Notes under the pieces: generated by a model
The model's database searches: none
What the model saw: only the letters and a program-made list of their open reading frames with translations
What the model was told of the DNA's origin: nothing
Part shown: piece after piece, positions 1 to 41,397 of the stretch
Position numbering within the stretch: the stretch's first letter is position 1
Layout: the number at the start of each line of letters is the position of its first letter
Source: a virus
IMG/VR virus record: IMGVR_UViG_3300050821_020196
Coordinates: 6,527 to 70,526 of that record
Length of the DNA: 64,000 nucleotides
Strand: one strand, 5' to 3'
Position numbers and translations under genes: made by a program

Positions 1-2
1 TC

Positions 3-353: not shown

Positions 354-362
354 TACCCGATA

Positions 363-810: not shown

Positions 811-822
811 TTAAATGCCGGA

Positions 823-1035: not shown

Positions 1036-1264
1036 AGAACCTCGATCCCGGAGAGACCTATTCTTTTACCGGCGAACAGCTGGCCATGTTCATTCGCGGC
1101 TCCGTCGGGATCGCTAATGAGCTTTATACTAAGATGGGGACCGGCAACGACGAGGCGGTTTACCGGGAAACGATCATGATGCAAATGGAGGGCCTCCTCG
1201 TCGAGCGGGAACTCGTCCGGCGCGGCATCGTAAAGAACCCTAAGCACCAACTCTATCCGCTCCC

Positions 1265-2445: not shown

Positions 2446-2657
2446 TTTATCTTTGACGAATTGACCGGATGGATAAGATCGACGGATTAGCCGCTAGCCT
2501 CGAAGAGGAATTAGCCAAGCTCGAAGCGAAGCTAGTGCGCACTTCCTTAGAGCAGAATTATATCTGGGCGATCCGGAGCCTTCTCCGGCAATATTACGCC
2601 GAGATTAAGGGCAAGTAATCTTACCGCCCGCATAGCTTAGCGGTAGTTCTCGGGCGT

Positions 2658-3047
2658 ATGAGAGAGAAGGTTCGCGACATTACCGCAAGTCGGCACGGCG
2701 GGAACGCGGAATCGGCTTTAGCCTTCCGCGATCTCCGCCCGCACCTTGCCGAGCAAACCGCCCGAGTAGCTTCGATTATCCTTCAACATCCGCACGGTCT
2801 AACCGCGCAGGAAATCGAGAGGATCTCCGGCATTCCGTATAATTGTGTCTCCGCCCGTTGCGCGGAGTTAAAGGCGGAGGGTTTAGTCCTTCGCAAGAAA
2901 TTGGGTACCAACCTCGAAGGAAAGCCGTTTTTCGAGCGGCGGAAAACCCGTTCCGGATCGCTAGCCGTCGTCCTAATCTGGAATCCGACGATTAGCCCGT
3001 CGACGATCGGCTGGGTGAAGGAACTCTTCGAAGCTCCCGCCTCCTAA
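2658..3047 (+). CDS. Winged helix-turn-helix protein
   Basis: GLTAQEIERISGIPYNCVSARCAELKAEGLV; GTAGTT at 2643. Confidence 0.7.
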   Translation: MREKVRDITASRHGGNAESALAFRDLRPHLAEQTARVASIILQHPHGLTAQEIERISGIPYNCVSARCAELKAEGLVLRKKLGTNLEGKPFFERRKTRSGSLAVVLIWNPTISPSTIGWVKELFEAPAS

Positions 3048-3075
3048 CCGCTAAAAACCGCTAACCCTGAAAACG

Positions 3076-3127
3076 AAAAACGGCTCTCCTAATCCTCACC
3101 TAAGGTAGGGAGCCGTTTTTCGGTATA
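3076..3127. terminator. Hairpin with A/T flanks (copy 2)
   Basis: aaaaacggctctcct...agggagccgttttt. Confidence 0.55.
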
Positions 3128-3144
3128 TGCCCTGACTTTATTTT

Positions 3145-3489
3145 ATGAGAGAGTTTAACCTATCCGATCTTATAGAACGAGAACGAGCGCGTAGTTTTAA
3201 GCGTATGCCTCGGGCCCGCGTTCAACATCAGGTGAAGTATAGTAAAACGATGGAGCTAGGCAACGGTCAACGCTTCGAAATGTGCGCCAATTCCAAGAAC
3301 GGTTATTTCACTACCATTTCCCGCAACGTTTTAAAGGATGCGCCGGTCGTGGTCGGTCCGACCGATCTAAACCGGGAGCAATGGCTAGAGCTAGCCGAGG
3401 TTTGTACGAAAATCGCGAGTCTAGTAAAAAGCCGGAATATTAAGGAATTTTTTAATCCGAACTCCCCGCTCGATAGCGAGTTGTATTGA
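3145..3489 (+). CDS. Hypothetical phage protein
   Basis: 114-aa ORF. Confidence 0.55.
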   Translation: MREFNLSDLIERERARSFKRMPRARVQHQVKYSKTMELGNGQRFEMCANSKNGYFTTISRNVLKDAPVVVGPTDLNREQWLELAEVCTKIASLVKSRNIKEFFNPNSPLDSELY

Positions 3490-3504
3490 ACGTAATTAAC
3501 CGCG

Positions 3505-3723
3505 ATGAACATGGTAGTTAAAGCGGTCATGGCGGTTAAAACCTTAATTATCGTGGCTTCCGCCGCCGCTTTAATCCTGGAAGCCTTTATCGCGAAGGAG
3601 ACTTTTAAAATTGAAAAAGATACCGATAACCTCGTGAAGATCGAAGGCCAGATCCGGGATCTCCTTTCTATGGCGGATAAATATGGCAAACCGTCCGCCA
3701 CCCCTACCCCGGAGACGAAATAA
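3505..3723 (+). CDS. Small membrane-anchored protein
   Basis: N-terminal hydrophobic helix; GTAATT at 3492. Confidence 0.6.
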   Translation: MNMVVKAVMAVKTLIIVASAAALILEAFIAKETFKIEKDTDNLVKIEGQIRDLLSMADKYGKPSATPTPETK

Positions 3724-3726
3724 TTT

Positions 3727-4101
3727 ATGCCCGATGAGGAAAAGAAGAGCACCGGTAAATCGACCGACTGGACGAAAATCGTCGGAGCGGTCGCCGGGGG
3801 AGTGCTTCTCGCTTTGCAAGGAGCCAATCTTTCCGAGGTTTCTCACGGCAACTCCAATGGCGAGAAGCGTATGGAGACGCTCCAGCAATTGTTAGTAATT
3901 TCGAAGAACATTGACGCTTCGCTTAAAAATCAGACCCAAATGCTAGAGCATGACGAGCAAAGCGCCTCTAATCAAAAAGTTATCCTGGACACGATAAATA
4001 AAGCGATTAGCGAACGGCGTACCCTCCTCCAGCAAAGCATTGACGAGTTAAGGAAAGAAAACCATCCGACGCCTTCCTCTACTCCTTCCCCGACGCCTTA
4101 A
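3727..4101 (+). CDS. Membrane-anchored coiled-coil protein (possible lysis accessory)
   Basis: TM segment IVGAVAGGVLLAL followed by heptad repeats. Confidence 0.55.
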   Translation: MPDEEKKSTGKSTDWTKIVGAVAGGVLLALQGANLSEVSHGNSNGEKRMETLQQLLVISKNIDASLKNQTQMLEHDEQSASNQKVILDTINKAISERRTLLQQSIDELRKENHPTPSSTPSPTP

Positions 4102-4103
4102 AT

Positions 4104-4328
4104 GTGTTTATGGAATTCTGGAAACTATGTCTAGCCTGGGGTTGTTTAACCATGTTTTTCGGAGTTCCGATCGTCCTTTTTACCTTGCATATTTGGAACC
4201 TACAAACGCCCGCCGCTTTTATCCAACATATTCAAGAATTTAAATATATTGGGGAATATCTTCGTACAATAACGGCGATTATCATTTCGCTCGCCGGACT
4301 ACATACCGTCGAATTTTTTAAAAAGTGA
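4104..4328 (+). CDS. Two-TM small protein, holin candidate
   Basis: Two hydrophobic segments, basic C-terminus; function inferred. Confidence 0.45.
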   Translation: MFMEFWKLCLAWGCLTMFFGVPIVLFTLHIWNLQTPAAFIQHIQEFKYIGEYLRTITAIIISLAGLHTVEFFKK

Positions 4329-4606
4329 ACTGGCAACGCTATAAGATCTGTCTTTCGAACGGGTTAAAAGCGTCTTCCGCGCTAATCGCCGCCGTCGATA
4401 TACCGGTCGATATGCAGGTTCTCGGCGATATGGTTTTATATCATTTTCCGGCTTACCGCATCCGTTTCTTTAAAAACTAAGCGAGCCGGGTATTTACGCG
4501 ATAGTACCCCGGTTCGCTCGGATGCCATCGCAAGTCTCTAAGCGGATCGGGGGAAGTGTTAAGATTTCATTTTCACCGCACAAGTTACCGATGCCAATAA
4601 TAATGG

Positions 4607-4987
4607 TTACCGTAGTCCCTCCAATGCGGCAAACGCATCGTGAATAGATAAGCGGCTGTAGTTGAGGAGTTCGAGATCGTTACTCGTCGGACTCGTCTTG
4701 CGAGCATACGGACGCCACTTCATATTGGCCGTACTACCGTTAACGAGATCGTTAAACTTCATGCAAACGCTAGCGTAGTTGCCGCATTTGATATTACATA
4801 TATTCTCTCCGTCGAGCGGCGCGGACGGGTAGCCGTAATTAGGCTCTCCGCAAAGGATGTCCGCTTTTATTATGACGTAAGCGCCCCAGTTGGGCATCAT
4901 GCTCGGGCGCGCGTATAAGTGCCAGCGATTGCGATTCCGAATCAGCTGGTAAGTTCGGTCTTCGATAATTAAATGTGTGGGAAGCAT
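4607..4987 (-). CDS. Hypothetical moron-like protein
   Basis: 126-aa ORF opposite to its neighbours, upstream of the packaging module. Confidence 0.45.
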   Translation of the reverse strand: MLPTHLIIEDRTYQLIRNRNRWHLYARPSMMPNWGAYVIIKADILCGEPNYGYPSAPLDGENICNIKCGNYASVCMKFNDLVNGSTANMKWRPYARKTSPTSNDLELLNYSRLSIHDAFAALEGLR

Positions 4988-5110
4988 TTGAGAAAATTAC
5001 CGCCCGCTTTAACAAGTTGAAGACATTTTACGAAAAATTCCATCTAATAAGCCAATAAGGTCACTAATGACCTAGGGATTGAGGTACTCCGTCGTCAGCC
5101 AATAAGTCAT

Positions 5111-5155
5111 AGGTTCTTTCAAAAAGCGCGATCGTTCAGCGGACGCTGGCGACGT
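5111..5155 (+). other. Candidate cos site (cosQ-like AGGTTCT, cosN-like CGCTGGCGACGT)
   Basis: Resembles lambda GGGTCCT...GGGCGGCGACCT; lies just upstream of terS. Confidence 0.45.
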
Positions 5156-5308
5156 GAATTTCGATTTAGGGTGAATTAATTGTAATGTACGTCTCCAGCC
5201 AAAAATGTGTATTTTTACATTTAATGGTTGATTTGACCCGAAAAACGACGTGAACGTCGTTTTTAAGCGAGCTAGAATGTGCCCGATTTTGCGGGTATAT
5301 ATTTGAGT

Positions 5309-5521
5309 ATGGCTTCTCAAAAAGAGATAAAGGACTTCTTGGATCGGAAGAGATCTCTCCGTATCCAGAGACAAGCGGAGCTAGGCGCATGGCTAGAGCA
5401 GGTAGCCGTTATGCAAGAAGCGCTAGGCCGCAAGCTAGAGGAGAAGGAACTATCCGAGGCTCTAATCCAGTACAATAAAGTAAACCCTCCGGTAATTTAC
5501 GATATTATCCCTAACGAATGA
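5309..5521 (+). CDS. Hypothetical protein
   Basis: ORF whose stop overlaps the terS start (ATGA). Confidence 0.55.
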   Translation: MASQKEIKDFLDRKRSLRIQRQAELGAWLEQVAVMQEALGRKLEEKELSEALIQYNKVNPPVIYDIIPNE

Positions 5522-6093
5522 GTGAGGTACTCGATTTCGGCGACCAGGAGGTAAGCTCCCGAGAACTCGGCAACGTGCTCGGGCTCTCCCGGAGTGCTAT
5601 AAACGCTCTCGTTAAGAGCCGGGTCTTCCAGACGGTACCCGGGCACGGGCGGGCGACTTATCTAAAGCTCGGGCCCTCCGTGCGTTCCTTCGTCATGTTC
5701 AAGGCCAATAACGCCGGGGATACGGAGAACGTAAAAGACATTCACGAAGCCCGCCTCCGCAAGCTCCGGGCGGAAGCGGAGGCGAAGCAACTCCTCGTCG
5801 CCCAACTTAAGCGGCAACTCTTCCGGGAAGAGGACATCCGCCAGATCGTCGGCGATATGTGCATCCGGGTGCGCTCGAAGATCCTCGCCATTCCCTCGAA
5901 TACGACGGTGCTTATTACCGGGAAGACGAACCCGATCGAGGTAAAGACGGTGCTCGAACGAGCGGTGCGGGAAGTGCTCGCCGAGATTACCCCTTACTCC
6001 CCGGATACCTTCGCCGCCCGTAACCCGCTCGCCCTACCGGTAGATCCCTACGATGACGACGGCGGCGAACAAGGATCTACTCCGGGCCCTTAG
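5518..6093 (+). CDS. Terminase small subunit (Nu1-like)
   Basis: N-terminal HTH (ELGNVLGLSRSAINALVK), EARLRKLRAEAE coiled coil, directly before TerL. Confidence 0.85.
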   Translation: MSEVLDFGDQEVSSRELGNVLGLSRSAINALVKSRVFQTVPGHGRATYLKLGPSVRSFVMFKANNAGDTENVKDIHEARLRKLRAEAEAKQLLVAQLKRQLFREEDIRQIVGDMCIRVRSKILAIPSNTTVLITGKTNPIEVKTVLERAVREVLAEITPYSPDTFAARNPLALPVDPYDDDGGEQGSTPGP

Positions 6094-8014
6094 GCTTTTT
6101 CAGGAACTTCATAAGCTTTTCGAGCCTCCGCCCATCCTCGATTTAGTAGCCTGGGCGAACTCGACCCGCCAGCTTACCTCCGAGGGGGCCGTCGAGCGGG
6201 GTTCTTTTAACTACGATAAGGTGCCCTACCTTATCGAGCCCTCCAATTGCTTTACCGATCCCCGGGTCGAACGGATCGTTATTAAAGGTGCGGCGAGAAC
6301 GGGTAAATCCGAGGCTCTTCTCGTTAATCCGCTCGGGTTCATAATCGAGCATGACCCGGGCCCGGTAATGATCGCCTACCCGGGCGAGGATCTTATCGAG
6401 AAGTTTTGCGGCCAGAAGCTCGTCCCCCTCCTCCGGGATAACCCGACGATTAATCCCCGGGTGCATAAGGGAGGCCGGACGGCGGAGGGGGGCACGAATA
6501 AGATGAAGCGGAAGACCTTCGACGGGGGTTCCGTGGAGGTTGTTAACGCCGACATAGGATCTAGCTTCCGTTTGGCGGATGTCCGTTACGCCTTCTTCGA
6601 CGAGGTAGACGCGGCGAAGCCGAATTGCCAGGGGGAAGGTTCTCCGGTAAAGCTCCTAATTAAGCGGACCCAAAATGCCCCGAACCGGAAGATCGTCCTC
6701 ATTAGTAGCCCGACGGTCGCCGGGGGCTCTTTAATCGAGGACGCCTACTTAGATAGCAGCCGGGAGGTCTATACGATCCCTTGCCCGTCCTGCGGTACTT
6801 ACAACGAGCTTCTATGGAACTGGAAGAAGGAGGAAACCGGCTACCCTTCCGAGTGCGAGTTTCGAATGCGCTTTCGCGATGCCGCTATTTGTTGCGTCTC
6901 CTGCTACGAATATTTCAGCCAGTGGCAATGGCTATCGAAATCGCATCTTGGCAAATGGATAGCGACCAATCCGGGTTGGAAGAGCGGGAGGCACCGGGGT
7001 TTCTGGATCACTGGTCTCGTCAGCCCCTGGGTCTCCTGGGAGGTGCTCGTCGAAGAGTACCGGGAAGCCGTCGCTCTCCTAAAAGAAGGAAGACCGGCGG
7101 AGTTTATAACCTTTCTAAATACGGTGCTGGCCGAACTCTACGAGGAGGATCTCGGCGAACGGCTGGACGAGGAGGTCTTCTTCGCCCGGCGGGAAGTGTA
7201 TCTCGACGAGATACCGGAGGGCGTTCTCTTAATAACTTGTGGCGTTGACACGCAAGACTCCTGGCTAGCTTATAGCATCCTCGGTTGGGGAAAAGACCAC
7301 GAGTGCTGGTGCCTAGAGGCGGGGGTTATCGAGGGGGACCCGGCGGATAAGAAAACCTGGGAAACCTTCGACCGGGTTATCTATAACCGGGAGTGGATGC
7401 GGGGGGAAGAGGTGTTAAAGATCGATCGTACCTTTATCGATTCGGGCGGGCATAAGACGGATTTCGTCTACGAAAATTGCCGGGGTAGAGGACCTAGATT
7501 GTACCCTTGCCGGGGGATCGACGGAGAGGGCAAAAGCGTCATTATTAAGCGTTTCGATCCGAAGGAAGGCAAACCATTCCGCTATGAAATTGCCACGGAC
7601 ATGACGAAAAACGAACTAGCTTCCCGCTTGCGGGTGCAAGATCACGGCCCGAGTTATTTTCATTTTCCCCGGGGCGAGGATGGGGAGGAGATACGCGGGT
7701 TCGATCTCAACTTTTTTAAGAGCCTCTGCGGCGAGCGTCAGAAGGAGCTAGTCGACGCGAAGGGCTTCTCCCGCACCATTTGGACCCGCTTTCGGCGCAA
7801 CGAGTACTGGGATACCTACCAGTACGCTTATTCCGCTCTCGTCTCCCTCGGCTCCGGCCACGCTTTAGAGCGGGCTTACGAGGACCGGATCGAGGAGGCA
7901 CGGAAGAAGGCAAAGCCGAAGGAGGAGTTGCAACCGGCTTTCGGCGGTTTCCGCATGATGCCGGGGATGCGGAGCAATCCCGGGCCCAACGTGGACCCCT
8001 GGGGAGCCCGTTAA
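6053..8014 (+). CDS. Terminase large subunit, GpA family
   Basis: Walker A GAARTGKSE, Walker B FFDEVD, SSPT, CPSC, GVDTQD, IDSGG, NEYWD. Confidence 0.95.
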   Translation: MTTAANKDLLRALRLFQELHKLFEPPPILDLVAWANSTRQLTSEGAVERGSFNYDKVPYLIEPSNCFTDPRVERIVIKGAARTGKSEALLVNPLGFIIEHDPGPVMIAYPGEDLIEKFCGQKLVPLLRDNPTINPRVHKGGRTAEGGTNKMKRKTFDGGSVEVVNADIGSSFRLADVRYAFFDEVDAAKPNCQGEGSPVKLLIKRTQNAPNRKIVLISSPTVAGGSLIEDAYLDSSREVYTIPCPSCGTYNELLWNWKKEETGYPSECEFRMRFRDAAICCVSCYEYFSQWQWLSKSHLGKWIATNPGWKSGRHRGFWITGLVSPWVSWEVLVEEYREAVALLKEGRPAEFITFLNTVLAELYEEDLGERLDEEVFFARREVYLDEIPEGVLLITCGVDTQDSWLAYSILGWGKDHECWCLEAGVIEGDPADKKTWETFDRVIYNREWMRGEEVLKIDRTFIDSGGHKTDFVYENCRGRGPRLYPCRGIDGEGKSVIIKRFDPKEGKPFRYEIATDMTKNELASRLRVQDHGPSYFHFPRGEDGEEIRGFDLNFFKSLCGERQKELVDAKGFSRTIWTRFRRNEYWDTYQYAYSALVSLGSGHALERAYEDRIEEARKKAKPKEELQPAFGGFRMMPGMRSNPGPNVDPWGAR

Positions 8015-13480: not shown

Positions 13481-13501
13481 GCCCCGGGGTAGTTATCCGG
13501 C

Positions 13502-20618: not shown

Positions 20619-22382
20619 ATGGCGAATAATTCCGATTTCCCGCAATCGATCGATAATTTCTTCGATCCGGATCCAACCACGCCGTTGGATGACGCGACCA
20701 ATCCGCACCATCTTATCGAAGGGCGGCAAAACGATGCGATAGCCTCTATTCAGACGAAGGTGGGGATTGATAATTCGGGAGACCCGAATTCGCTCGATTT
20801 TATTATCCGCAACCTGAATGCGGTGGTAACGCAAACGACGGCGCTCTTTACCCTCCCTCCGGCGGACGGAACGACGACGGTTACGGTCGCGGTTATCTCC
20901 ACGGCTAACCTAGAGGTCGGCTTCGGGGTCTTTATCCCCAATGCCGGGCTCTTCGCGGTAAATGCCATTGTCGATGGCACCCATGTTACCCTCGTCCTCC
21001 TTCCTTATCCGGGGAACGTTTTTACCGGCAATATCCTACCTAACTCCGAGGTTTATAACGTCGGCGTTTCCTCTCCGGCAACGTCGGGGATGCTCGGCCT
21101 TCTTCCGATTCCTCCCGGGGACCCGGGCAAGATCCTCCTCGGTAACGCGACTTGGGGCACGCCCGCCGGGTCGTTACCGCAACCTCCTCCCTCTAGCGGG
21201 GCGGGGTCGGCAACGACGGTCTGGTTGCAGGGGACGGATAGCTGGCAAACATTGCCCCAGCACGCTTATACGAGCGCTCCCTTTACCGTTCCTTCGGCGG
21301 GGGGTACGGTTAGCGTTTCGATCTATCCGGCGGACTGGCCGATCGTGGGGGGCGATGTCTATTTTTCGGACGGCACTTCCCGGGGCTTCATGGATATTAT
21401 TTCCGCCGCCGGGAGCCCGGTTACCTCCCTAATTCTCGCGAATAATGGTAACGCCGTCCAAGGGGCTAATGTTAATGCCAACGCGGTTATTAAGCTCGCC
21501 GGAGTGCCCCGGGCTTCTTTCGGCAAGGACGGCCTCTTAATCGCTCCCATTAACGACGGGATCTCCTTTCTCCGGAGCGATAACGCCTGGGCGGTTCCGC
21601 CCCAGCCAACCTTGCCCCCGGGAGTTATTCTCCCCTTCGCCGTAGCGACCCCTCCTTCGGGATACCTTCTTTGCGACGGGACGAGTTACGGGACCAATGT
21701 TTACCCCAATTTATTTAACGCCATTGGGTACACTTTCGGCGGTTCGGGCGTTTCGTTTAATGTTCCCGATTTACGGGGAAGAACCCCTATCGGGGCCGGG
21801 CAAGGGACCGGTTTAACTAACCGGGTCTTAGGGGCGACGCTAGGAGAAGAGACGCACCTCTTAACCGTGGCAAAAATGGCTTCTCATACCCACGGCATGG
21901 ATCACAGCCATAATATCGCCGCCGGGCAATTTAGCCATACCCATTCTAAAACCGATCCTGGCCATGTGCATAGCATGGACCATTATCATAATATTTCGGC
22001 GGGGATCTTTACCCATACTCACGTCGATGCCGGGCACGCGCATAGTTATAATCAACCTCTGCATACTTCCGGACCTACGCTAGTAGCCGGTTCCGGTTTT
22101 ACCTATGGGGCGGAAAATACCGGTATCGGGGCCGCCGCTATTCAAAATTGGAATTCTCCCGCTTCGAATACCGTCTACGCTAGCCAAACCAACGCCGCCT
22201 GGGTGAATACGGTAGCGGCGGCGACGGGAATTAGCATCGTAGCGGCTACCCTCCCCGCCGGAGTAACGGCGACGGCGAGCGCGACCAACGCCGCCTACGC
22301 TAATACCGGGAGCCAAGGCGGTGGGACTGGGCATAACACGATGCCCCCCGCCCTCGTCTTAACCTACATAATTAAATATTGA
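20619..22382 (+). CDS. Tail fibre protein with tail-collar domain
   Basis: PSGYLLCDG...FNVPDLRGR, many HxH motifs, HNTMPP...YIIKY. Confidence 0.9.
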   Translation: MANNSDFPQSIDNFFDPDPTTPLDDATNPHHLIEGRQNDAIASIQTKVGIDNSGDPNSLDFIIRNLNAVVTQTTALFTLPPADGTTTVTVAVISTANLEVGFGVFIPNAGLFAVNAIVDGTHVTLVLLPYPGNVFTGNILPNSEVYNVGVSSPATSGMLGLLPIPPGDPGKILLGNATWGTPAGSLPQPPPSSGAGSATTVWLQGTDSWQTLPQHAYTSAPFTVPSAGGTVSVSIYPADWPIVGGDVYFSDGTSRGFMDIISAAGSPVTSLILANNGNAVQGANVNANAVIKLAGVPRASFGKDGLLIAPINDGISFLRSDNAWAVPPQPTLPPGVILPFAVATPPSGYLLCDGTSYGTNVYPNLFNAIGYTFGGSGVSFNVPDLRGRTPIGAGQGTGLTNRVLGATLGEETHLLTVAKMASHTHGMDHSHNIAAGQFSHTHSKTDPGHVHSMDHYHNISAGIFTHTHVDAGHAHSYNQPLHTSGPTLVAGSGFTYGAENTGIGAAAIQNWNSPASNTVYASQTNAAWVNTVAAATGISIVAATLPAGVTATASATNAAYANTGSQGGGTGHNTMPPALVLTYIIKY

Positions 22383-22391
22383 TTCCCCCCC

Positions 22392-23228
22392 CTAGAACGT
22401 CCAGACCGAGGGCGAGCAGATAAAGTTCGGGTTGCCGAAGCTCCCGTAGGGAAGAAGGGAGCTATCCGCGAAGTAGATTAACCCGGTAAGGAAGCTGGTA
22501 GCGGTAAAGAAGGAAGAGGCGATCGAGAGCGCGTTAGCTATCCAGTTATTTTTATAAGCGAAGTCGCCGAAAACCCCCGCCGCTCCCATCTCGCAAACGA
22601 AAACATTTTTCGTGGCGTCGGCGGTAGCGGCGGCGTTGAACTTCGCGCTTACGATGTCGCTAAAGGCTTGCGGGTTTCCGTAAACGAAGGTGTCGTAGGG
22701 GGCGTAGGAGTAGGCGGAGATCCCGATAATGTCTACCACGTCTCCGAGGGGGTAGTAGAGGAAGGCGTTAGCCGCCCCGTCCGGGCTCCAGATGTAAGTC
22801 GCCGGGAAGGCCGAGGGAAGGAGGATCTTAAGCCGGTTTACGACGTAGCGGTAGGCGGCGATATAGCCGTTCGGGTCATTGGTCGCCCAGTCGTAGACCC
22901 CCCGATTAGCCGGTAGCTCCATCCCCGGCCCCCAACGGAAGTAGACGCTTACCCGGGCGGAAGCGAGATCGGCGGCGAGCGCGTTAATCGTCGCGTCGTA
23001 GAGCCCGGCGGCGATGTCGGATAAGAGGGTCGCGCTCGACGAGGCGAGGGCGAAATCGGTAAAGGGGAGAACGGTTAAAAGAAGGGTGCGCCCCCGGTTG
23101 GTAGCCCCTAAGGCGGCGTTGTAAGCCGTGCCGGGGGTATAGCCGCTCCAATTGAGGAAGACGTGTTCGTAAGTAAGGTTAGTCGCGTTGCGAAAAAGGC
23201 CCCGAGGATCGTAGACGCCGAGTTGCAT
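22392..23228 (-). CDS. Glycoside hydrolase family 26-like protein
   Basis: GLYDATI, YFRWG, YIAAYRYVV, IWSP, YYP..VVDIIGISAY, VCEMG. Confidence 0.75.
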   Translation of the reverse strand: MQLGVYDPRGLFRNATNLTYEHVFLNWSGYTPGTAYNAALGATNRGRTLLLTVLPFTDFALASSSATLLSDIAAGLYDATINALAADLASARVSVYFRWGPGMELPANRGVYDWATNDPNGYIAAYRYVVNRLKILLPSAFPATYIWSPDGAANAFLYYPLGDVVDIIGISAYSYAPYDTFVYGNPQAFSDIVSAKFNAAATADATKNVFVCEMGAAGVFGDFAYKNNWIANALSIASSFFTATSFLTGLIYFADSSLLPYGSFGNPNFICSPSVWTF

Positions 23229-23248
23229 CGACCGTTAAATACTTCTAG

Positions 23249-24241
23249 ATGGGTAATTCAGTTCGAGCGGATGGCTTAAGTCTTACCCCGGAGGGGAAAG
23301 TGCGCACCGTCTTCCATCCGGAGGGGGTTTCCGAAAAGGAGCTTTTCTTTAATGAGGAAAAGGTGGCCGCCCTTATCGTCGAGTACCAACGGGGGAAAGA
23401 GGAACGGGTCTGGCAGGAGATCGTGCTCGAAAGCCTCTCCGCCATCGAGGCCTTAATTAAGCATTACCGCTTTCACCAGTACGACGAGGTGGAGGCCATC
23501 CGGGGAGATTGCATTATAAAGCTCCGCCGAATAATCGAGGTTTACGATCCGGCCCGGGGGCGGGCTTTCTCGCATATTTTTTGGTCGTTAAAAAATTTCC
23601 TGATAAGCTTCGCCCGCAATTCCCGCCGCCGGAGCGAAACTTTTAGCGGCTTAGAGGAGTTTGGGGATACGCTTGCCGCCTCGACGCTTTATGGGTTAGA
23701 GCTAAGCGAACACTTTAAAACCCGGGTGCTCCGGATCGAGACCCGTTTTTCGCTCCCGATCGAGAAGGAGGCCATCCGCTTCTTAATCGTCTATTTCCTT
23801 CTAGAGGGCCTAGGCAATGCCCGGCCCCGTCTTCTCCCTTTCCTTTGCGGGCATTATGGCTTCCCCCGGGGAGAGGCGGAGCTACTCTACGCCTACGCCT
23901 CCGTTCTCCTCCGGGGAGCCCTTTTCGAGGAGTACCCGACCCAACTCGGTTTCGATTTCGAAGAGCTAAGGCATAGCCGCAAAGGAAAACGCTTTTTCGA
24001 AATCGCCCGCATCGTAGGCCGGGAGAATTTCTTGAAGTTGATCTACATTTTCGGGGGGGTTACCGTCCGTCTCCCGGAAAAGGGGGAAGAAGCTCGTTTA
24101 AAGGCCGCCGCCCGCTTTCTCGCTTCGTTAGGAACGGTTTCGAAGGAGCCTCCGCTAAAGAGGGGAGAGGCGGAGGAAACCCTCCTCTCCGGGGCGCTAA
24201 AGGGCTTCGATCGCACCGGGCCGCTCTTCGAGGAAACTTAA
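23249..24241 (+). CDS. Sigma-region-2 (gp55-like) protein with Mor-like C-terminal segment
   Basis: YDPARGRAFSHIFWSLKNFLISFAR (sigma 2.3-2.4); IVGRENFLKLIYIFGGVTVRLP (Mor-like). Confidence 0.7.
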   Translation: MGNSVRADGLSLTPEGKVRTVFHPEGVSEKELFFNEEKVAALIVEYQRGKEERVWQEIVLESLSAIEALIKHYRFHQYDEVEAIRGDCIIKLRRIIEVYDPARGRAFSHIFWSLKNFLISFARNSRRRSETFSGLEEFGDTLAASTLYGLELSEHFKTRVLRIETRFSLPIEKEAIRFLIVYFLLEGLGNARPRLLPFLCGHYGFPRGEAELLYAYASVLLRGALFEEYPTQLGFDFEELRHSRKGKRFFEIARIVGRENFLKLIYIFGGVTVRLPEKGEEARLKAAARFLASLGTVSKEPPLKRGEAEETLLSGALKGFDRTGPLFEET

Positions 24242-24268
24242 AAAGAGGGGAATTAGTATTTTAGGGGG

Positions 24269-24634
24269 ATGGCAAACGACGTTCTCCTGGATAACCCGGG
24301 CACTCTTTTCGATTGGCCGAACGAGCCCTTCGATTCGGGCCCTTGGCCCGCGCCCTACTCCGGACCGACTTCCGCTCCTCTTCTAGAGGACGCTACCGGT
24401 TACCCTTTTAGCGTCGCTTCGCTTTACCGGTGCGTTGCCGGGGATACCCCGGACCTAGTTTCCTTTAAGTGCTACGCCTCGGAGTGGTACTCCAACGTCA
24501 TCTTGGACGCCAATCCCGGCTATAACGCGACGACCATCTTCGACGGCGGCTCCATTCTTTATATCCCGCCGATCTACCAGGCCCGCTCGCTCCCGTTGCC
24601 GCCCTGGTTAACCGGGCAGGTCTTAACCTCATGA
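24269..24634 (+). CDS. Tail protein X (LysM-like)
   Basis: GDTPDLVSFKCY...ILDANPG...GSILYIP...LPPW. Confidence 0.85.
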   Translation: MANDVLLDNPGTLFDWPNEPFDSGPWPAPYSGPTSAPLLEDATGYPFSVASLYRCVAGDTPDLVSFKCYASEWYSNVILDANPGYNATTIFDGGSILYIPPIYQARSLPLPPWLTGQVLTS

Positions 24635-25659
24635 ATCTCGGCTCGGCAGTTCTCGGTGCTCTTTCCGTCTTTAATAAACCGGCTTGCACCGGTCGGGTCA
24701 TTCTGGTCTACACCCCGAAGGCGGCGGGGGCGGTAGGAGTGGATATAAGCTCGCTAATCTCTAATAACTTAATCGAATTTAGTTATAAGGATTACCTCTC
24801 CTTCCATAACGACCCGATCGAGATTATTATTTCCGACCCGGACCGGCGTTTCTCGACGGAATGGACCTTCGACATCGGGGGAAGGTTAGACGTTACCCTC
24901 GAACAGGATAATTGGGGGACCATCGGTACCACCCAGGTCCAGCTAGGCATCTTCTTTATCGACGAGATCCAGATCGACGGCCCTCCCAATCTCGTCCACG
25001 TGCGGGCGACCACCTACGACCCGGCGCTCATCCTAAAGTACCAGCCGAATACTACTCGCATGGAGGCCAGTCAACCGGCCAATACGCAAGGGGGAAATTT
25101 CCTTCTCCAGGAACCGGCCACCGGCACCGGCACGACCTTAAAGGATTTCGCGGCTAAGGTGGCAAAGGAAGGCAATTACTCTCTTCAGTACATCGCCCCG
25201 ATTAACCCGGCGATTAATACCATCGGGCAAACGGAACTCTCCGATTTCGTCGCTCTAGAGAAGCATTGTCGCTCCTTTAACCTGATCTGTAAGCCGAATA
25301 AAGGCATCCTTTTTATCGCCGACGAATTGCAATTAGAGCAACTGGCCCCCTCCTATACGATAATGGCTCCTACCTCTACGGCGGCGGGAGGAATTAATAA
25401 CGGGGGGATCGAACACTGGTCTCTCGTGGTAAGCGTGCAGGATACCTACTACGCGGCGGTGCTCCGGAAATTGAATCCCAATACCGGTTCGGTTACCTCG
25501 GCGACTTATTCCGACCCGAATAGCAAATCGGGAGCGGCTTTAAAGAATACGAAATCGGATACCACGGTTAAGGGCACGGCGGACGTTATCCCCCTCGTCG
25601 GCCCGGATACGACGACCGGCGACCCGACGGCGAATAATCCCTTCGGAACTACGGCTTAA
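24631..25659 (+). CDS. Baseplate hub (P2 gpD-like), N-terminal part
   Basis: LGIFFIDEI...GPP, QTELSDFVAL. Confidence 0.8.
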   Translation: MNLGSAVLGALSVFNKPACTGRVILVYTPKAAGAVGVDISSLISNNLIEFSYKDYLSFHNDPIEIIISDPDRRFSTEWTFDIGGRLDVTLEQDNWGTIGTTQVQLGIFFIDEIQIDGPPNLVHVRATTYDPALILKYQPNTTRMEASQPANTQGGNFLLQEPATGTGTTLKDFAAKVAKEGNYSLQYIAPINPAINTIGQTELSDFVALEKHCRSFNLICKPNKGILFIADELQLEQLAPSYTIMAPTSTAAGGINNGGIEHWSLVVSVQDTYYAAVLRKLNPNTGSVTSATYSDPNSKSGAALKNTKSDTTVKGTADVIPLVGPDTTTGDPTANNPFGTTA

Positions 25660-33250: not shown

Positions 33251-36200
33251 ATGGCTGGCGTTAACATAACCGAAATCGTCCCCAGTACCCCTTTAGCCGT
33301 CGTCGAAAGTAGCGGCGTCCAGGGGCCGGTCGGCCCCCCCCGGCCCGACCGGACCGAAAGGAGTTCCCGGGAGCACCGCCTCCGTTTCGGAAGACCCGAA
33401 CAACATCGCCATCCTGGGCACGGACGCCCTCCTTTATGTTCCGGGGCCGAGCAACGGAAATGCCTCGAACGGGGAAGTGGTTACCGGGAACGATACCCGG
33501 TTAAGCGACTCCCGGAATCCCCTCCCGCATCGTGCTACGCACGAGCACGGCGGTTCCGATCCGGTAACGGTTACCTATGCCGATCTCGCCGGAATCCCCG
33601 CTTCCTTCGCCCCTTCCGCTCACGCCTCCTCCCACGAAAGTGCCGGGAGCGATCCGATCGGGCTCGATACGCTCGCCTCTCCTTCGGATAACTCGAATCT
33701 TAACGCGACCGCGAACGCTCACGGGCTCCTCCGCAAGCTGGATAATAACGCTAGTCATTATTTAGACGGGACGGGATCGTGGAGTCTCCCCCCGGTTAAT
33801 ACCGGCCCTACGGGTCCCTCGGGAGTTACGGGCCCGACGGGAGCGGTAGGGCCGACGGGCCCGGTCGGACCGGCGGGAAATCCGGGTCCGACGGGGCCGA
33901 CGGGCGCTACCGGGGCCACTGGAGCCGCTTCGACCGTTCCCGGACCGACCGGAGCCGCCGGGGTAACCGGCCCGGCGGGCCCGGCGGGAACGACCGGCCC
34001 GGCGGGCGTTACCGGTCCGACCGGTCCGACCGGAGTTGCCGGGCAATCGTTTACTTTTCGCGGAAGTTGGTCGTCTTCGACCGCCTATTCCCTCCTGGAT
34101 ACCGTTACCCGTTCCGGGTCGAGTTACGTTTGCATTTTAGCCAATACGAATGTCGACCCGGCCCTCGATCCGAGTCGCTGGTCATTAATGGCGGCGATGG
34201 GTGTTACGGGTCCGAGCGGGGCCACCGGTCCGGCGGGGGCGACCGGAAGCACCGGTCCCCAAGGCGTTGCCGGGCCAACGGGCTCCCAAGGGATTCAAGG
34301 TTCTACGGGCCCGGCGGGGCCGACCGGGCCGACCGGCACGAGCGTTAGCTTAAAAGGATCGGTCGCGACTTCCTCCGCCTTACCGCCGACCGGGAATACC
34401 TTCGGGGACCTATGGATCGCTACCGATACCGGGGAAGGCTGGGTTTGGAGCCCGCCCGGGCAATGGGAAAACGTCGGCCACATTCAAGGGCCTCCCGGCC
34501 CTACCGGGGGTACGGGCCCGACGGGGCCGCAGGGGATCGCCGGGGCAACCGGCCCGCAAGGCATTCAGGGCACCCCGGGAATGACGGGGGCAACCGGCCC
34601 GGCGGGAACGAGCGTGCTCCTTAAGGGCACCGTTGCCACTTCTTCTAGTCTTCCGTCGAGCGGGAATAGCTTCGGGGACTTATGGATAACGGCGGATACC
34701 GGGCACGGCTGGGTTTGGACGAGCCCGGGCACCTGGGTAGACGTCGGCCCCATTCAGGGACCGGCGGGCGCAACGGGGGCAACGGGAAGTACGGGTCCGC
34801 AAGGAGTCGCGGGCACTCCGGGAACGCAAGGCCCGGTGGGAAATACGGGCCCGGCGGGGCCGACCGGGCCGACCGGCCCGCAAGGGAATCAGGGGCCGAC
34901 CGGGGCGGCGGGCACCCCCGGTGCGACCGGCCCAACCGGTCCGGCGGGCGTAACGGGCGCAACGGGTGCGACGGGAGGTGCGGGAAATCCGGGCCCCAAT
35001 GGCCCAACCGGTCCGGCGGGAGCGACCGGGGCCACGGGCCCGGCGGGCACCCCCGGTGCCACGGGCCCGGCGGGCGCATCGTTCGTTTGGCGGGGGATTT
35101 GGTCGAGCGCGGTGGCATACGTCCCTTTCGATAGCGTTTCGCAAAATGGTTCGACTTACGTCGCCGTTTTAGCTTCGACGAATAGCGATCCCAGCTCCGA
35201 CGGCGGCGTGCACTGGCAGTTAATGGCTAGCGCCGGAATTACCGGGGCAACCGGCCCGACCGGGCCGACCGGCCCCCAAGGCGTTGCCGGGGCCACGGGA
35301 CCGACGGGAAACCAAGGGCCGATCGGGAATACCGGGCCGACCGGGCCGACCGGCACGGGTACCCCCGGTGCGTCGGGGCCGACGGGCCCGACCGGGGCAA
35401 CCGGCCCGGCGGGGCCGAACGTCGTTAGTACCGACGCGAATAATAAAGCTATCCTCGGCTCGGATAGCCATGTCTTCGTTTTAGGCACGGCTCCGGGAGT
35501 AGGTGCGACCGGCCATAGCCAAGTCGTAAGTGGTGATGATCCGGCGCTAACCAATTCTAGAACGCCTCTTCCGCACGCGATTACTCACCGGGCGGGTTCG
35601 GGGGACGCGCTCGCGATCGACGTACTCGCCGCCCCGAGCGACAATGCGAATTTAAACGTCTCGACGTCGGCCCACGGGCTCGCTCCGAAGCTCTCCGGCA
35701 ACTCCGGTCAGTATCTCGACGGCACGGGGGCCTGGTCGGTGCCCGCCGGAACGGGAGGAGGCGGAGGCGGAGGAACGGTTATTACCCTTCCTTCTTCGGC
35801 TCCGCCGATTACTCCGCCGCGAGTAGCGACTTATTTCGTTGCCCAGGCCAGCGCCGGAAGCGGAAGCGGGCTTAGCATCGGCAATCCCGTCTCGGTCTCT
35901 ACCTTTAACGCGAATAGCGCCCTGGCCGCCGGAACGGTCGTTCAATTTAATGGCACGCTAACCACCGGGATTAACCCCAGTTGTAGCGGGGCCGCCGCCA
36001 ACCCGATCTACCTGGATTTCCGGCTAGCCACGGTTACGACGACGGTAACGATTAATAACCGGAGCTACCTTACCCTCCTCGGCGGTACCACGAGCCCCTC
36101 TTCGGCGAACGATATTTTCGGTATGTCCGGTTGCACCGGGATTACCATCGATAGTTGGACTTATCTCGGCACTAGCCTCAGCAATTATCTTAATGCCGGG

Positions 36201-38363
36201 CTAATCGGCACCTGCACGAATACCATTATCTCGAATTGTGTTCTTCACAATTTCGCCATGGGATTCGCCGGGGATAACAATAATGGCTTCCTCATTATTG
36301 GCAACGATCTCCTAACCAATACCAACGCGGGTGGTCAGTGCGATATTATTCACCTCGGTAGCGCGCTTAACATCACCATTGAGCGAAATAAGATCGTCCA
36401 GCGGGCTCCGGGCAACCCGACGACGAGGCATAACGATTGCATCCAGACGTATACGACCGGCACGGCCAATCCCAATAACTGGATTGTCCGCTATAACTGG
36501 ATAGAAAATCAACAAACGACGGCCAATAGCTCCGGGGATTGTTCCTGGCATATTATGCAGGATATGCAGGACGCGGGAAGTCTCCCGGCCTTAAAGATCT
36601 ACGGCAACGTCTATGTCGGGAGCGGCAACGCCTCTAACAATGGTATCCTTTGCAACCGCAACGGGGCCTCCGGGGGAACTTTTTATCTCTACGGGAATAC
36701 CTTCGCGATTACCCCGAACGACTCCCCGGTTAATACCGTCCGCTTCTTAAACGATGCCGGGCCGGGCACTCTTTACGCCCGGAATAATGCCGGGCAGAGG
36801 GCCGCCCAACGGGGAACGGATCTCGAATGGGACCTTACCCCCGGGGGAAGCGGGTTCGATTATAACTTCTGGTACAACTGGTTCGGATCCAATACCGAGC
36901 CCGACTCCCTTTTCTCCGGGCCGCACGGTTTCTTTTCCGGAAGCCCGCCGACCACTTCTCCTTTTAACAATTTTAGCGGAGGCGACTTTAGCCCGGCCAC
37001 CGGGAGCCCGCTTATCGGAGCGGGCGACATCACCATCGGCTCCGAGTTCCAATACGGTCTCCAGCCGGGGACGACTTTCCCGAATCCGACGGTTATCCAG
37101 CGGGCAGCTTCCGCTTACGACGTCGGCGCGTTCGTCGCCACTCCGGCCCTTACCGGAGGCGGAGGCACCGGAGGAGGAGGTACTGGCGCTCCAGGCGAAA
37201 ACGCTTTTACGGTTACCGCAAGCGACTCGACCGGCACTTTTACCGTGCCTCAGGTTGGCTCCTCGACGACGGTTAACGTAACCAACGCCGACTTTATAGT
37301 TCCTGGCCAGATTGTTTACATCGCCGGAGCGGGCGGACCGGGAACCGCTGGAGCGCTTCAAGTACAGGCCGTCGTGGGCAAAACGCTTACTTTATATAAC
37401 CCCATTCCCCCTCCTTCCGGGTCTTCCCCGGGAAGCGGCGGGATAGTTTATTCCGGGGTTAGCTCGGTAAGCGTCGTCGGCAATACCATCTCCCTCGTTA
37501 ACGATCTCGCTAACCCGGGCAATTTAAAAGTCTACGGGACCAATCCCTCCGGAGTACTCGGTTGGAGTGCCATCTCCGGGCTACCGGTAAATTATGCCTC
37601 TCTCGTCGGTACGCAACCGGCTCCCCCGCCGCACGCCGCTTCGCACGAAAGCGGAGGGGTCGACGTTATCCCGCTCGATACCCTCGGCTCGCCGACCGAC
37701 ATTACCACGCTCAATGCTTCGACGAGCGCTCACGGTCTTCTCCGCAAACTAGACGGAACGGCGACCCATTATTTAGACGGCACCGGAGCCTGGAGCACCC
37801 CCGCCGGAGGTGCGACGGGAGCTACGGGCCCGACTGGGCCGACGGGAAAGAATTGTTATACAACGACCAGTGGGCCCTTTACCGTCCCCAGCTCGGGGAC
37901 GGTAACGGTTTCCGTCGTCGATGCCGGATGGGCCGTTCCCGGGGAGATGGCCTATTTTAGTGGTGCGGGCGGATCGGGTTTAGCCGGGGCGCTAGAGATC
38001 GTTTCTATCGCCGGAAATACCCTAACCCTCGGATTGCCGACGCCGCCGAGCTACGCGCCTCCGGCGGTCGACCTTACCGTTTTTATCGAGAGCCCGACGA
38101 ATAAGACTTACGTCCTCGACCTCGGCCTTCCCGCTCCTTGTACGATTACTTCGATTTTAATTAAGACCGTCTCCGGTACCTGCACGGCGGCTTTAAACCG
38201 CAACGGCTCGGCCATTACCGGAGCGAGCGCTCTTTCCGTTAGTAGCACGCTAACCTCGGTAACTCTAGGCCAAGCTTGCTCCGCCGGGGATACGATAACC
38301 CTAGTTATAAGCGCGAACTCTAGCTCCGTCGATCTAGCCGCTTCCGTCCACATGCAACCGTAG
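33251..38363 (+). CDS. Giant collagen-repeat fibre with beta-helix domain, frameshift at C8 run 33334-33341
   Basis: GPT/GAT triplets, His-rich modules, central beta-helix (HNDCIQ); removing one C fuses the 33251 start to the 1628-aa ORF. Confidence 0.85.
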
Positions 38364-40233: not shown

Positions 40234-41397
40234 TTAAATAATCGCGAAGTACGCCTCCGCCGTCTCCCGGTCGACGACCTCCCAGTAGTGCTCGCGGAGC
40301 ATGCGCTCGGAGTGGTCGGCTTGTCCCGCCGTCCAGGTTAAACCCTTTAACGCGACGCCGTAGGAGCAAAAGGAATGCCGGAGCACGTTCTGTGGCCAGG
40401 GGGAGATACCGGCTTTCCCCGCCGCCTTCGTCATTACGATCTGCAAGCCGGGCCGGGGAGGGAGAACAGGACCCGAGCATGTCTCGGGAATTCCCGAGAC
40501 ATCCTTAGGAATTCCTAAAGATGAAGCGAGGATCGTCGCCAGATTTTCCGGGATTTCGATAAGCTTGCGCTTGCCGTTCTTCGACTTGCCGAAGGGGAGG
40601 TCGATAAGCCGCCGGTCGAGCTTTATCTCGCTCCAATCGAGCCGCTCGGCCTCCGCTCGCCGCAAGCCGGTAAAGGCGGAGATCGCGAAGAAAGGAACGA
40701 ACTCCGGGCGGAGGGCGAGAAGGAACTTTGCCAGTTGCTCCGGGGTAAGCACCGAAACTTGCCGTCCCCGCTTTGCCGGATCGTTAAAGGGAACCACTTC
40801 GGCGAGGGGGTTGCTCGGGAGAAGGTGCCAGCTTTTGGCCATGTTAAGCGCGTTTTGTATGTAGCCCAGGTGCCGGTTTCTGGTTTTTATCGCCAGGTCG
40901 AGGCCGGAGAGCCAGCTCTTTATCCCGTTCTCGGTAAGGAGGGAGAGGGTCTCCTCGCCGAAACGGCCCTCGAATTTGCGCAAGGTCTCCCGCATCGATT
41001 CGGCGTGGCGCTCGGAAATCTCTTTCGTCGCGAGGCGACGCTCGAATTCATTGGCTACCCGTGCGCAGAGGGCCCGTACGCTGCCCGAAGAGGAAAGCCG
41101 GTCTAAATGATTCCGGTAGAAGTGCACCGCCTCGTAGAGGGTTTTATCGTAGGGCCGGAGCATTTCAATGCACTCGGCGGCCATGACCCGTTGCGTGTCG
41201 GTAAGGGAGGTACGGGTGCCGAAGGCGGCGATCTGATCGTTTAGATTGCGGGCGGCGGCTTTCGCTTCCTTTTCGGTAACGAAGTAGTACCGTTCCCGCT
41301 TGCCGGTAGGGCGGCCCTCGATTTTCCATTCCTTTTTCCCGTTGGGGGAAGAGAGTTTAAAAACGCGGAAAGACTTGGACGACGGCGGGCGCGGCAT
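40234..41397 (-). CDS. Tyrosine integrase of the prophage
   Basis: GLRRAE, SKNG, LRHSF, H...HY catalytic residues; adjacent to tRNA. Confidence 0.93.
   Translation of the reverse strand: MPRPPSSKSFRVFKLSSPNGKKEWKIEGRPTGKRERYYFVTEKEAKAAARNLNDQIAAFGTRTSLTDTQRVMAAECIEMLRPYDKTLYEAVHFYRNHLDRLSSSGSVRALCARVANEFERRLATKEISERHAESMRETLRKFEGRFGEETLSLLTENGIKSWLSGLDLAIKTRNRHLGYIQNALNMAKSWHLLPSNPLAEVVPFNDPAKRGRQVSVLTPEQLAKFLLALRPEFVPFFAISAFTGLRRAEAERLDWSEIKLDRRLIDLPFGKSKNGKRKLIEIPENLATILASSLGIPKDVSGIPETCSGPVLPPRPGLQIVMTKAAGKAGISPWPQNVLRHSFCSYGVALKGLTWTAGQADHSERMLREHYWEVVDRETAEAYFAII

Follow-up and report, generated by a model that had tools for sequence, protein, structure and literature searches.

A predicted two-domain sigma factor with a Mor-derived C-terminal module, encoded among the tail genes of a temperate phage

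Introduction

What kind of transcription factor does an uncultured temperate phage encode among its tail genes, and which promoters could such a factor serve? The question is raised by an open reading frame (ORF) in the viral record IMGVR_UViG_3300050821_020196, which is 70.5 kb long, is rated complete by CheckV and contains a prophage. The window analyzed here is a stretch of 64,000 nt of that record (record positions 6,527 to 70,526), and all coordinates below refer to the window. The ORF at 23249..24241 (+) begins with ATG, remains open for 330 aa and reaches its stop within these coordinates; its product is referred to as P0001. A sequence-only reading had described P0001 as a sigma region 2 protein of the type of T4 gp55, fused to a Mor-like domain, without an apparent region 4 helix–turn–helix (HTH), encoded inside the tail operon and devoted to the hexamer GTANTT. 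The ORF itself is real: the frame is open over 330 aa as claimed, 406 relatives are found by profile, and the structural model is confident. The four peptides quoted in that reading (FFNEEKVAALIVEYQ, YRFHQY, YDPARGRAFSHIFWSLKNFLI and IVGRENFLKLIYIFGGVTVRLP) are all present in the translation.

Judged from its sequence, P0001 is a divergent sigma-70-family factor with the two-domain build, sigma2–linker–sigma4, of the extracytoplasmic function (ECF) sigmas. Joined to this core are a gp55-like start, a Mor-derived module whose HTH is not intact, and a conserved terminal peptide. This combination seems not to have been reported before; our literature searches found no description of a sigma–Mor fusion. 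P0001 is probably the late-gene sigma of this temperate phage, which we consider its most likely role.

Results

Relatives of P0001 carry sigma region 2 and Mor domains

A word-indexed search recovered two relatives only, at 61% and 31% identity to P0001, the closer of which has the same length as P0001. A profile built from these three proteins and run exhaustively with HMMER against library representatives clustered at 50% identity returned 406 representatives at E ≤ 1e-3, of which 112 reach E ≤ 1e-10 and 18 reach E ≤ 1e-30, which gives a family of about 400 mostly metagenomic relatives. A set of 152 stored proteins was analyzed further, and 61 near-full-length aligned members were scanned against Pfam. 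Sigma70_r2 matches 22 of these 61 (best E 8.6e-13) and Mor matches 10 (best E 7.1e-8), the sole other Pfam family in the set being represented by one weak hydrolase match. One member only, P0016 (E 3.3e-33 to the profile), clears both curated thresholds, with Sigma70_r2 over residues 49–103 (29.7 bits; cutoff 24) and Mor over residues 226–304 (27.2 bits; cutoff 24.9). A PHROG scan of P0001 itself at E ≤ 10 gave phrog_836, a family of late transcriptional activators (E 0.008, aa 251–285), and phrog_27067, and no others. P450-like PDB matches to residues 12–67 in a single-sequence search (E 0.06–0.25) were taken as chance.

A sigma2–linker–sigma4 fold

A first AlphaFold model made from 3 sequences was too poor to use (predicted local distance difference test, pLDDT, of 47.7) and was discarded. 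The model used here, built on 92 sequences, has a mean pLDDT of 88.8 and a predicted template modeling score (pTM) of 0.64. It consists of four helices at 36–139, a low-confidence linker at about 142–149 and four further helices at 154–228, followed by a C-terminal part with helices at 237–242, 244–256, and 258–268, the strand GGVTVRLP, helices at 278–294 and 307–317, and a short strand at 324–325.

An exhaustive VIA structure search over 48,161 chains places sigma factors in 31 of its top 33 rows (Z 12.1 to 6.0), led by Staphylococcus aureus SigB (Z 12.1, residues 36–227). Sigma2 domains match overall with Z of 8–12 and root-mean-square deviations (rmsd) of 2–4 over 84–108 residues, among them Mycobacterium tuberculosis SigC (10.8), SigK (10.4), RpoS region 2 (9.6), and sigmaE region 2 (9.5). 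Several alignments span both domains, as with AlgU (147 of 168 residues, over 37–229), SigL (150, over 48–231), SigH (140, over 48–226), SigW, and sigma28. A Foldseek search of PDB and BFVD with the complete model yielded no match at E ≤ 1e-3, although sigma factors make up most of both lists; the missing significance is probably due to the multi-domain query. At the level of profiles, the family matches solved sigmas including the sigma N-terminal domain 8b3z (E 2.3e-4), SigH, FliA, and RpoS. The region 2 domain named by the sequence-only reading is thus borne out by the Pfam matches of the relatives, by solved sigmas, by structure comparison and by the ECF alignment described next, and the predicted model carries the sigma2 fold.

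For the second domain, we assembled a comparison set of seven cellular sigma genes from Verrucomicrobiota genomes, found with the family profile; all seven pass Sigma70_r2, and five of the seven pass Sigma70_r4_2, Sigma70_r4, and Sigma70_ECF. Profile–profile comparison by hhalign aligns the family with this ECF set at 98.6% (E 8.8e-16, 181 columns), pairing P0001 residues 40–227 with ECF positions 14–196 of 203, and the alignment runs unbroken through the region 4.2 HTH (P0001 155–227). In addition, residues 151–230 superpose on sigmaE region 4 bound to −35 DNA (2h27_D; Z 5.7, 66 residues). One continuous alignment over region 4, together with the likeness to sigmaE region 4, therefore marks P0001 as ECF-like (sigma2 plus sigma4) and not gp55-type, and the earlier statement that no region 4 HTH is apparent must be withdrawn for residues ~154–228. 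In the family column counts, R222 is invariant in 89 of 90 rows and position 211 is K or R in 49% of rows.

The resemblance to ECF (group 4) sigmas, including those of the ECF41/42 type, thus covers both the sigma2–linker–sigma4 build and the possession of an extra C-terminal domain. Such C-terminal extra domains are described in 19 ECF groups in the accessible text of PMC7826278. The extensions named there are SnoaL-like, TPR, Cys-rich, DUF1835, and transmembrane, with a Mor-derived type not among them in that text, and its authors state that phage ECFs were not captured by their re-classification. P0001 differs from the ECF sigmas in that it scores under every curated ECF or sigma threshold and in that its recognition helix is without most of the basic residues.

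A gp55-like start

Second in the VIA list stands T4 gp55 (chain 7d7d_F; Z 11.0, rmsd 4.0, 108 aligned residues, P0001 residues 33–151). The identity of chain F in 7d7c/7d7d was confirmed by searching the T4 gene 55 product against PDB sequences (E 9e-124), and its structural score is tied with those of ECF sigma2 domains (10.8 and 10.4). When the family profile is aligned by hhalign with the single gp55 sequence (70%, E 4e-5, P0001 residues 29–129), the alignment starts ahead of the point at which the ECF alignment begins, and F33 and Y46 (F and W in the family consensus) pair with gp55 Y10 and W23. These are the aromatics at positions 10 and 23 that PMC2988020 describes as absolutely conserved in gp55 segment 1, a segment without a sigma-70 counterpart. 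The N-terminal E-L-F-F of P0001 was considered as a Mor-type clamp motif and rejected, as it pairs with gp55 segment 1, where the sigma2 fold begins.

P0001 and gp55 therefore share the sigma2 fold, segment 1 with its two aromatics, and a variable linker followed by a short hydrophobic–acidic C-terminal peptide, and both are phage-encoded regulators of contractile-tailed phages. However, gp55 has no sigma4 and works as a split sigma with gp33, whereas the P0001 chain has its own sigma4-like domain and a Mor-derived module; T4 encodes its own clamp (gp45), and this record has none; and the phage studied here is temperate, with a lambda-type head. The label "gp55-type" consequently survives as a statement about likeness, of the sigma2 domain and of the start, but not about membership, given the sigma4 domain, the tie with ECF domains and the absence of the gp55 family from the PHROG matches of P0001 at E ≤ 10.

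Inteins mark region 2.3–2.4

Sixteen of the 152 stored proteins, with lengths of 491–778 aa, give a split match to the profile that is interrupted in every case at P0001 residues 110–116. Among seven interrupted relatives scanned, an intein splicing domain is recognized in six and a LAGLIDADG endonuclease in five. At the junctions, ...F-S-x-x-S-x-x is followed by an intein ending in H-N (or S-N, or A-Q) and then by C-[IAS]-[KR]-[NH]..., such that the +1 cysteine of the intein corresponds to S113, and K115-N116 align with the conserved R-N of ECF region 2.3–2.4. Inteins typically occupy the most constrained sites of essential proteins. The use of a single intein site in region 2.3–2.4 therefore supports a working and important sigma2 surface. 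Among the literature matches listed, there was no report of an intein in a sigma factor.

The Mor-derived C-terminal module

Four members score above the Pfam Mor cutoff of 24.9 bits: P0024 (32.9, covering profile positions 26–106 of 107), P0045 (30.1), P0016 (27.2), and P0053 (27.0). Mapping the Mor coordinates of seven Mor-positive members through the family alignment places the domain at about residues 244–323 of P0001. What remains in P0001 and the proteins nearest to it are two helices, the strand F-GG-V-V-LP, the next helix, the last helix and the terminal peptide, but about 13 residues are gone where Mor-positive relatives have the first HTH helix (P-x-P-E-x-I-x-x-L-A-K-x-Y), and the model shows two helices after the strand, compared with three in the HTH region of Mor. 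The module of P0001 thus presumably corresponds to the N-terminal, dimerization half of Mor; the hairpin-plus-strand part is reportedly the dimerization domain in the Mor crystal structure.

Direct comparison with Mu proteins gives weak signals: hhalign of the family profile yields E 0.022 (probability 2%) against Mu Mor alone and E 0.28 against Mu C alone, phmmer of Mu Mor and C against the 152 stored proteins finds nothing below E 0.027, and Atlas leads for residues 236–285 are Mor clusters at low similarity (TM 0.37–0.41, feature score 0.77). Since these single-sequence Mu templates are too weak, the link to Mor rests on the Pfam matches of family members. The claim of a Mor-like C-terminus accordingly stands for the family (10 of 61 by Pfam, and phrog_836), while P0001 itself retains only the N-terminal half with a shortened HTH and has no Pfam Mor match. 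No free-standing Mor is indicated in the record either, as PF08765 finds nothing in it at E ≤ 1.

Among 72 stored proteins with the strand motif, 12 end at the strand or at most 7 residues past it, and 11 of these form a subfamily of ~225–241 aa that has sigma2, the sigma4-like domain and the Mor hairpin, without HTH and without tail. These short forms suggest that hairpin and strand are a unit that is kept even without the remainder. Compared with Mu Mor and C, then, family members hold a near-complete Mor domain above the Pfam threshold, and P0001 preserves the two N-terminal helices and the GG..V..P strand. The differences are that Mor (129 aa) and C (140 aa) exist as separate small proteins acting together with sigma-70, whereas in P0001 the module shares a chain of 330 aa with a sigma factor, and that the HTH of P0001 is cut down. 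The Pfam Mor model does not pick P0001 up.

A conserved terminal peptide and the clamp question

Beyond the strand, the family retains a terminal hydrophobic–acidic peptide behind a linker that varies in length and sequence, and this peptide is, with the Mor N-terminal hairpin and its strand, one of the family-conserved features of the C-terminal part. In the 60 stored proteins whose sequence continues for 30 residues or more past the strand, we scored the last 30 residues against 500 shuffles. The pattern [DEQ]xx[LVIM][FYW] occurs in 36 of the 60 tails (shuffled mean 4.0, maximum 10), and P[LVIM][FYW] in 23 (shuffled mean 1.0, maximum 5). These tails have the consensus [E/D]-x-P-L-[Y/F], after which come three or four acidic residues; the chain continues for a median of 8 residues past the aromatic. 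P0001 ends in T-G-P-L-F-E-E-T.

The terminal peptide is similar to the ends by which gp55 and Mu C bind the clamp, an analogy that we consider suggestive. The C-terminus of gp55 is SLDFLYEAND, described in PMC2988020 as a hydrophobic–acidic clamp-binding epitope behind a variable linker. [quoted passage not shown] The peptide found here occupies a near-terminal position comparable to that of QPDLF in Mu C, but is without the Q of the published consensus. No bacterial-type clamp gene is present in the record, and any clamp involved would therefore be that of the host. A complex prediction for tail residues 291–330 with DnaN of a close host relative, run without controls, gave a score of 0.02 and a mark of 0.32 and returned no answer, which counts as evidence in neither direction.

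It is a quite plausible alternative, though short of probable, that the peptide docks elsewhere than on the sliding clamp, its target being the protein itself (in cis, as a latch), RNA polymerase or a different phage protein. Its consensus has E/D in place of Q, and P in place of S/D, relative to the bacterial QL[SD]LF given in PMC12867686, and no clamp gene is encoded by the record. The model is confident over the final 20 residues (pLDDT 87–88) and forms a short strand there at 324–325, which suggests packing on the body of the protein. Against such docking, the near-terminal position, the variable linker and the hydrophobic-then-acidic composition match both the gp55 epitope and the C-terminal motif of Mu C.

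GTANTT is a real, prophage-specific element

Base composition predicts about 26 copies of the hexamer GTANTT in the prophage part of the window (1–41,400), where 36 are found on the plus strand and 32 on the minus strand. Intergenic sequence, 10.7% of the total, accounts for 12 of the plus-strand copies and two of the minus-strand copies. When positions −22 to −8 are scored, 13 of 35 plus-strand genes have a copy that starts 12–17 nt ahead of the start codon, compared with 2.2 on average, and never more than 7, for random ATG codons (1000 samples). None of the four host genes has the hexamer ahead of it, and neither do the integrase-like gene and the 13 further genes inspected past 50 kb. The hexamer is followed by A in 10 of 14 aligned sites, which have no conserved −35-like column, and a hairpin with a T run precedes the sites at 13489, 14508, and 30272. 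GTANTT is thus real and specific to the prophage, and a phage-encoded sigma is the obvious candidate for its reader, P0001 being the product of the sole sigma-like gene in the 70.5-kb record. The P0001 gene has no copy upstream, as is expected of a regulator that is made earlier by the host enzyme. Within the gene, a GTAATT lies at 23253–23258 (+), in codons 2–4 and 5 nt past the ATG.

Whether the hexamer works at the DNA level is a separate matter. GTANTT(A) could instead be an RNA-level or translation-initiation signal, a leader element of non-Shine–Dalgarno type, with P0001 a sigma that reads one or a few other promoters; we regard this as a real possibility, though less likely than not. 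The nearly fixed distance of 12–17 nt to the start codon, often with purine-rich sequence before the ATG, suits a translation signal at least equally well. The hexamer also occurs at nearly every junction of at least 10 nt, including those where the previous gene ends only 10–20 nt upstream, lacks a −35-like partner, and is found at none of six ORFs in two of the homologue loci, a small sample. However, its absence before the host genes, the integrase-like gene and the genes beyond 50 kb indicates that it is not the general translation signal of the host, and a phage-specific cis element fits a phage-specific factor. ECF sigma2 domains read −10 elements beginning with GT, as in the sigmaE region 2 complex 5or5, which is titled with GTAAAA. 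Use of GTANTT as a −10 element implies leaderless or near-leaderless transcripts, which are possible where the hexamer ends 6–9 nt ahead of the ATG.

Gene neighborhood and distribution

The positions of the P0001 segments, of the neighboring genes and of the GTANTT sites are collected in Table 1. The prophage combines lambda-type head genes with contractile-tail genes and an integrase-like gene. Beyond it lie host genes for Kdo transferase, AsmA, GlnE, and Mdh, of which Mdh has 84% identity to an uncultured Verrucomicrobiae genome, with its next best matches in Chthoniobacterales.

Table 1. Segments of P0001, genes of the prophage, groups of relatives and GTANTT sites (window coordinates; single numbers are positions as recorded)
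Feature	Position	Strand	Remarks
Whole ORF, P0001	23249..24241	+	sigma2 + sigma4-like + Mor-derived C-terminal module (predicted)
aa 1–28, N-terminal segment	23249..23332	+	HPEG motif; conserved in closest relatives only; pLDDT ~90 from residue 11
aa 29–139, gp55 "segment 1"-like start (F33, Y46), then sigma region 2 domain	23333..23665	+	helices 36–49, 52–72, 81–97, 106–139; from VIA, profile matches, hhalign
Codons W112-S113, intein site of 16 relatives	23582..23587	+	two residues ahead of K115-N116
aa 140–153, flexible linker between sigma domains	23666..23707	+	pLDDT <50 at 142–149
aa 154–228, divergent sigma region 4 (4.1–4.2 HTH fold)	23708..23932	+	from hhalign to ECF profile, 2h27_D, two-domain alignments (AlgU, SigH, SigL, sigma28), column counts
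aa 237–294, Mor-derived module	23957..24130	+	two helices, F-GG-V-V-LP strand (aa 268–276, nt 24050–24076), one more helix
aa 295–330, shortened Mor HTH remnant and tail	24131..24238	+	ends T-G-P-L-F-E-E-T; PLF = aa 325–327, nt 24221–24229
Small and large terminase	5518, 6053		
Portal; head protease; decoration protein; lambda E-type capsid protein	8482; 10330; 11872; 12322		
Neck proteins; sheath; tube-like; tape measure; fibre-like	(neck, none given); 15583; 17189; 17793; 20619		all upstream of the P0001 gene
Baseplate hub-like; gpD-like; gpV-like; further tail genes	24269; 24631; 26231; (further, none given)		downstream of the P0001 gene
Integrase-like gene	40234..41397	-	24.5 bits, under Pfam's 27.1
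GH26-like gene, 278 aa	22392..23228	-	weak GH26 glycoside-hydrolase match, 21.1 bits (cutoff 20.2)
GTANTT sites before plus-strand genes	2643, 10313, 13489, 14508, 15253, 17176, 20604, 24256, 26990, 28395, 30272, 33237, 38929	+	
GTANTT copies on the minus strand	before genes 4607–4987 and 22392–23228	-	at −16 and −17
GTATTT	23237..23242	-	in the 20-bp spacer, 17 nt ahead of the GH26-like gene start
GTATTT	24256..24261	+	13 nt ahead of the baseplate hub-like gene (24269)
Intein-bearing relatives			P0047, P0049, P0050, P0054, P0059, P0065, P0083, P0089, P0091, P0107, P0108, P0114, P0120, P0131, P0137, P0147
Subfamily ending at the F-G-x-x-x-K/R-F/I-P strand			P0082, P0088, P0106, P0112, P0116, P0119, P0124, P0132, P0139, P0140, P0142

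The gene directly upstream of P0001 is the GH26-like gene, whose start codon is divergent from that of P0001 at a distance of 20 bp and whose stop faces that of the convergent fibre-like gene across 9 bp. It has no PHROG match and may be a depolymerase or a moron. Because this gene is on the opposite strand, the P0001 ORF opens a new co-directional block and is not part of an unbroken operon; the placement "inside the tail operon" is therefore right in that contractile-tail genes flank P0001 on both sides, and wrong for its immediate upstream side. A promoter scan of 22200–24400 found no sigma-70-type promoter, and the four terminator-like sites in this interval are no more than in shuffles.

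Few early genes are recognizable to the left of the terminase genes (record bases 1–7800; window 1–5400), where we observed a glycosyltransferase-like gene, a topoisomerase-like gene, and an HTH protein at 2658–3047 with a GTANTT site, and where no repressor, replication module or clamp was recognized. Near the end of the tail module, a 1628-aa ORF at 33477–38363 (+) lies in a G+C-rich stretch (0.67 at 34–36 kb).

No cultured member of the family came to light. No match was found by tblastn of four divergent members (P0001, P0116, P0024, and P0062) against 50,697 GenBank phage records, T4 included, no relative on an IMG/VR viral contig with five queries (two family alignments, P0016, P0024, and P0116), and none on the genome contigs searched with P0001. 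Of 401 sampled Verrucomicrobiota genomes, two reach E ≤ 1e-12, in each case with a match confined to region 2, and in five of five Verrucomicrobiota genomes the family profile picks up ordinary sigma genes only, again over region 2. Five short metagenome loci with homologues were obtained, and the two of sufficient length for their genes to be read both show phage context: an SbcCD-like nuclease lies beside one homologue, and tail-fibre-like genes are divergent from another.

The prophage itself recurs, as identical contig fragments, in four soil-metagenome runs, each belonging to a different study. Soil contigs over 22300–24700 are of low depth, fragmentary and identical to the window, and therefore hold no variation from which selection could be read. 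A further contig from a soil run matches only 23470–23508, a conserved stretch of region 2, and then runs into unlike sequence, which by its sequence suggests a second, diverged family member in the same sample.

Discussion

Our analysis supports the hypothesis that P0001 is probably the factor responsible for late transcription of the prophage. After induction, P0001 would take the place of the bacterial sigma on the core RNA polymerase of the host; its sigma2 domain would dock on the beta-prime clamp helices and open a −10-like element, and its sigma4-like domain would hold the beta flap, which from established sigma biology is the minimal role to be expected of such a domain. The resulting holoenzyme would then transcribe the structural genes of the prophage, and the terminal peptide would most likely tether it to a partner, for which the host beta sliding clamp is the leading candidate by analogy with gp55 and Mu C only.

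Several of our results weigh against a role as late sigma. P0001 alone matches no Pfam family at E ≤ 10, and the ECF sigma superfamily model TIGR02937 gives it 12.6 bits, below its cutoff of 42.9. Pfam region 4 models have no match at E ≤ 0.01 in the 61 members scanned, and the sigma4 call therefore rests on profile–profile and structural alignment. The recognition helix, G-T-V-K-x-R-x-R-R in the ECF set, reads G-E-A-E-L-L-Y-A-Y in P0001, which has a single K or R within 207–221, whereas the seven ECF sigmas have K or R in most rows at four or five positions; reading of a −35 element by the sigma4-like domain of P0001 is doubtful given this scarcity of basic residues. The tail peptide is missing from three of the four best Mor-scoring members (P0024, P0045, and P0053). 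The gene also sits among tail genes that it must precede in action, which is an odd position for their regulator, and none of 24 runs examined was an RNA run carrying the element. The spacing of GTANTT to start codons and its absence from six ORFs of two homologue loci, both given above, fall on the same side.

One extended form of the late-sigma hypothesis would have P0001 act as a clamp-coupled late sigma in a single chain, which combines the roles of gp55 and gp33 with a Mor/C module, places its peptide on the host clamp and drives replication-dependent transcription, with near-leaderless products, from late promoters that consist of a GTANTTA −10 element only. We consider this complete form unlikely.

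Sigma mimics and appropriators are known from phages, and P0001 could accordingly bind RNA polymerase without recognizing any promoter, and so inhibit or appropriate host transcription or act as a decoy for it. Scores under all curated sigma thresholds and a sigma4 recognition helix short of basic residues would suit such a protein. However, the region 2.3–2.4 helix is conserved (FS..S..KN), matches the ECF motif in the alignment and holds the one intein site of 16 relatives, which points to a critical surface for DNA melting or recognition and not to docking alone, and we regard a factor that merely sequesters polymerase as quite unlikely. That P0001 is a decaying or accessory moron gene without a role in the phage cycle, as its accessory-looking GH26-like neighbor on the opposite strand and the shortened Mor HTH might suggest, is very improbable for a full-length open frame with a relative of the same length at 61% identity, 406 relatives in all, a confident fold and identical fragments in four soil runs.

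The family of P0001 joins in one chain three modules that have been known only separately: an ECF-type sigma2–sigma4 core, a gp55-like N-terminal segment, and a Mor/C module. Phage-encoded sigmas are the simplest viral route to reprogram the host polymerase, and their phage branch is poorly charted. Within the family, the intein hot spot in region 2.3–2.4 marks residues that matter, and GTANTT provides a concrete candidate target for in vitro work.

The conserved terminal peptide also makes it testable whether the use of the replication clamp in late transcription, as seen in T4 and, in 2026, in Mu, is general. The T4 and Mu systems are described in PMC12867686 as alike in mechanism and "nothing alike" in their protein players. 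If P0001 proves to be coupled to the clamp, it would link these two systems, and replication-coupled late transcription would be widespread in uncultured temperate phages.

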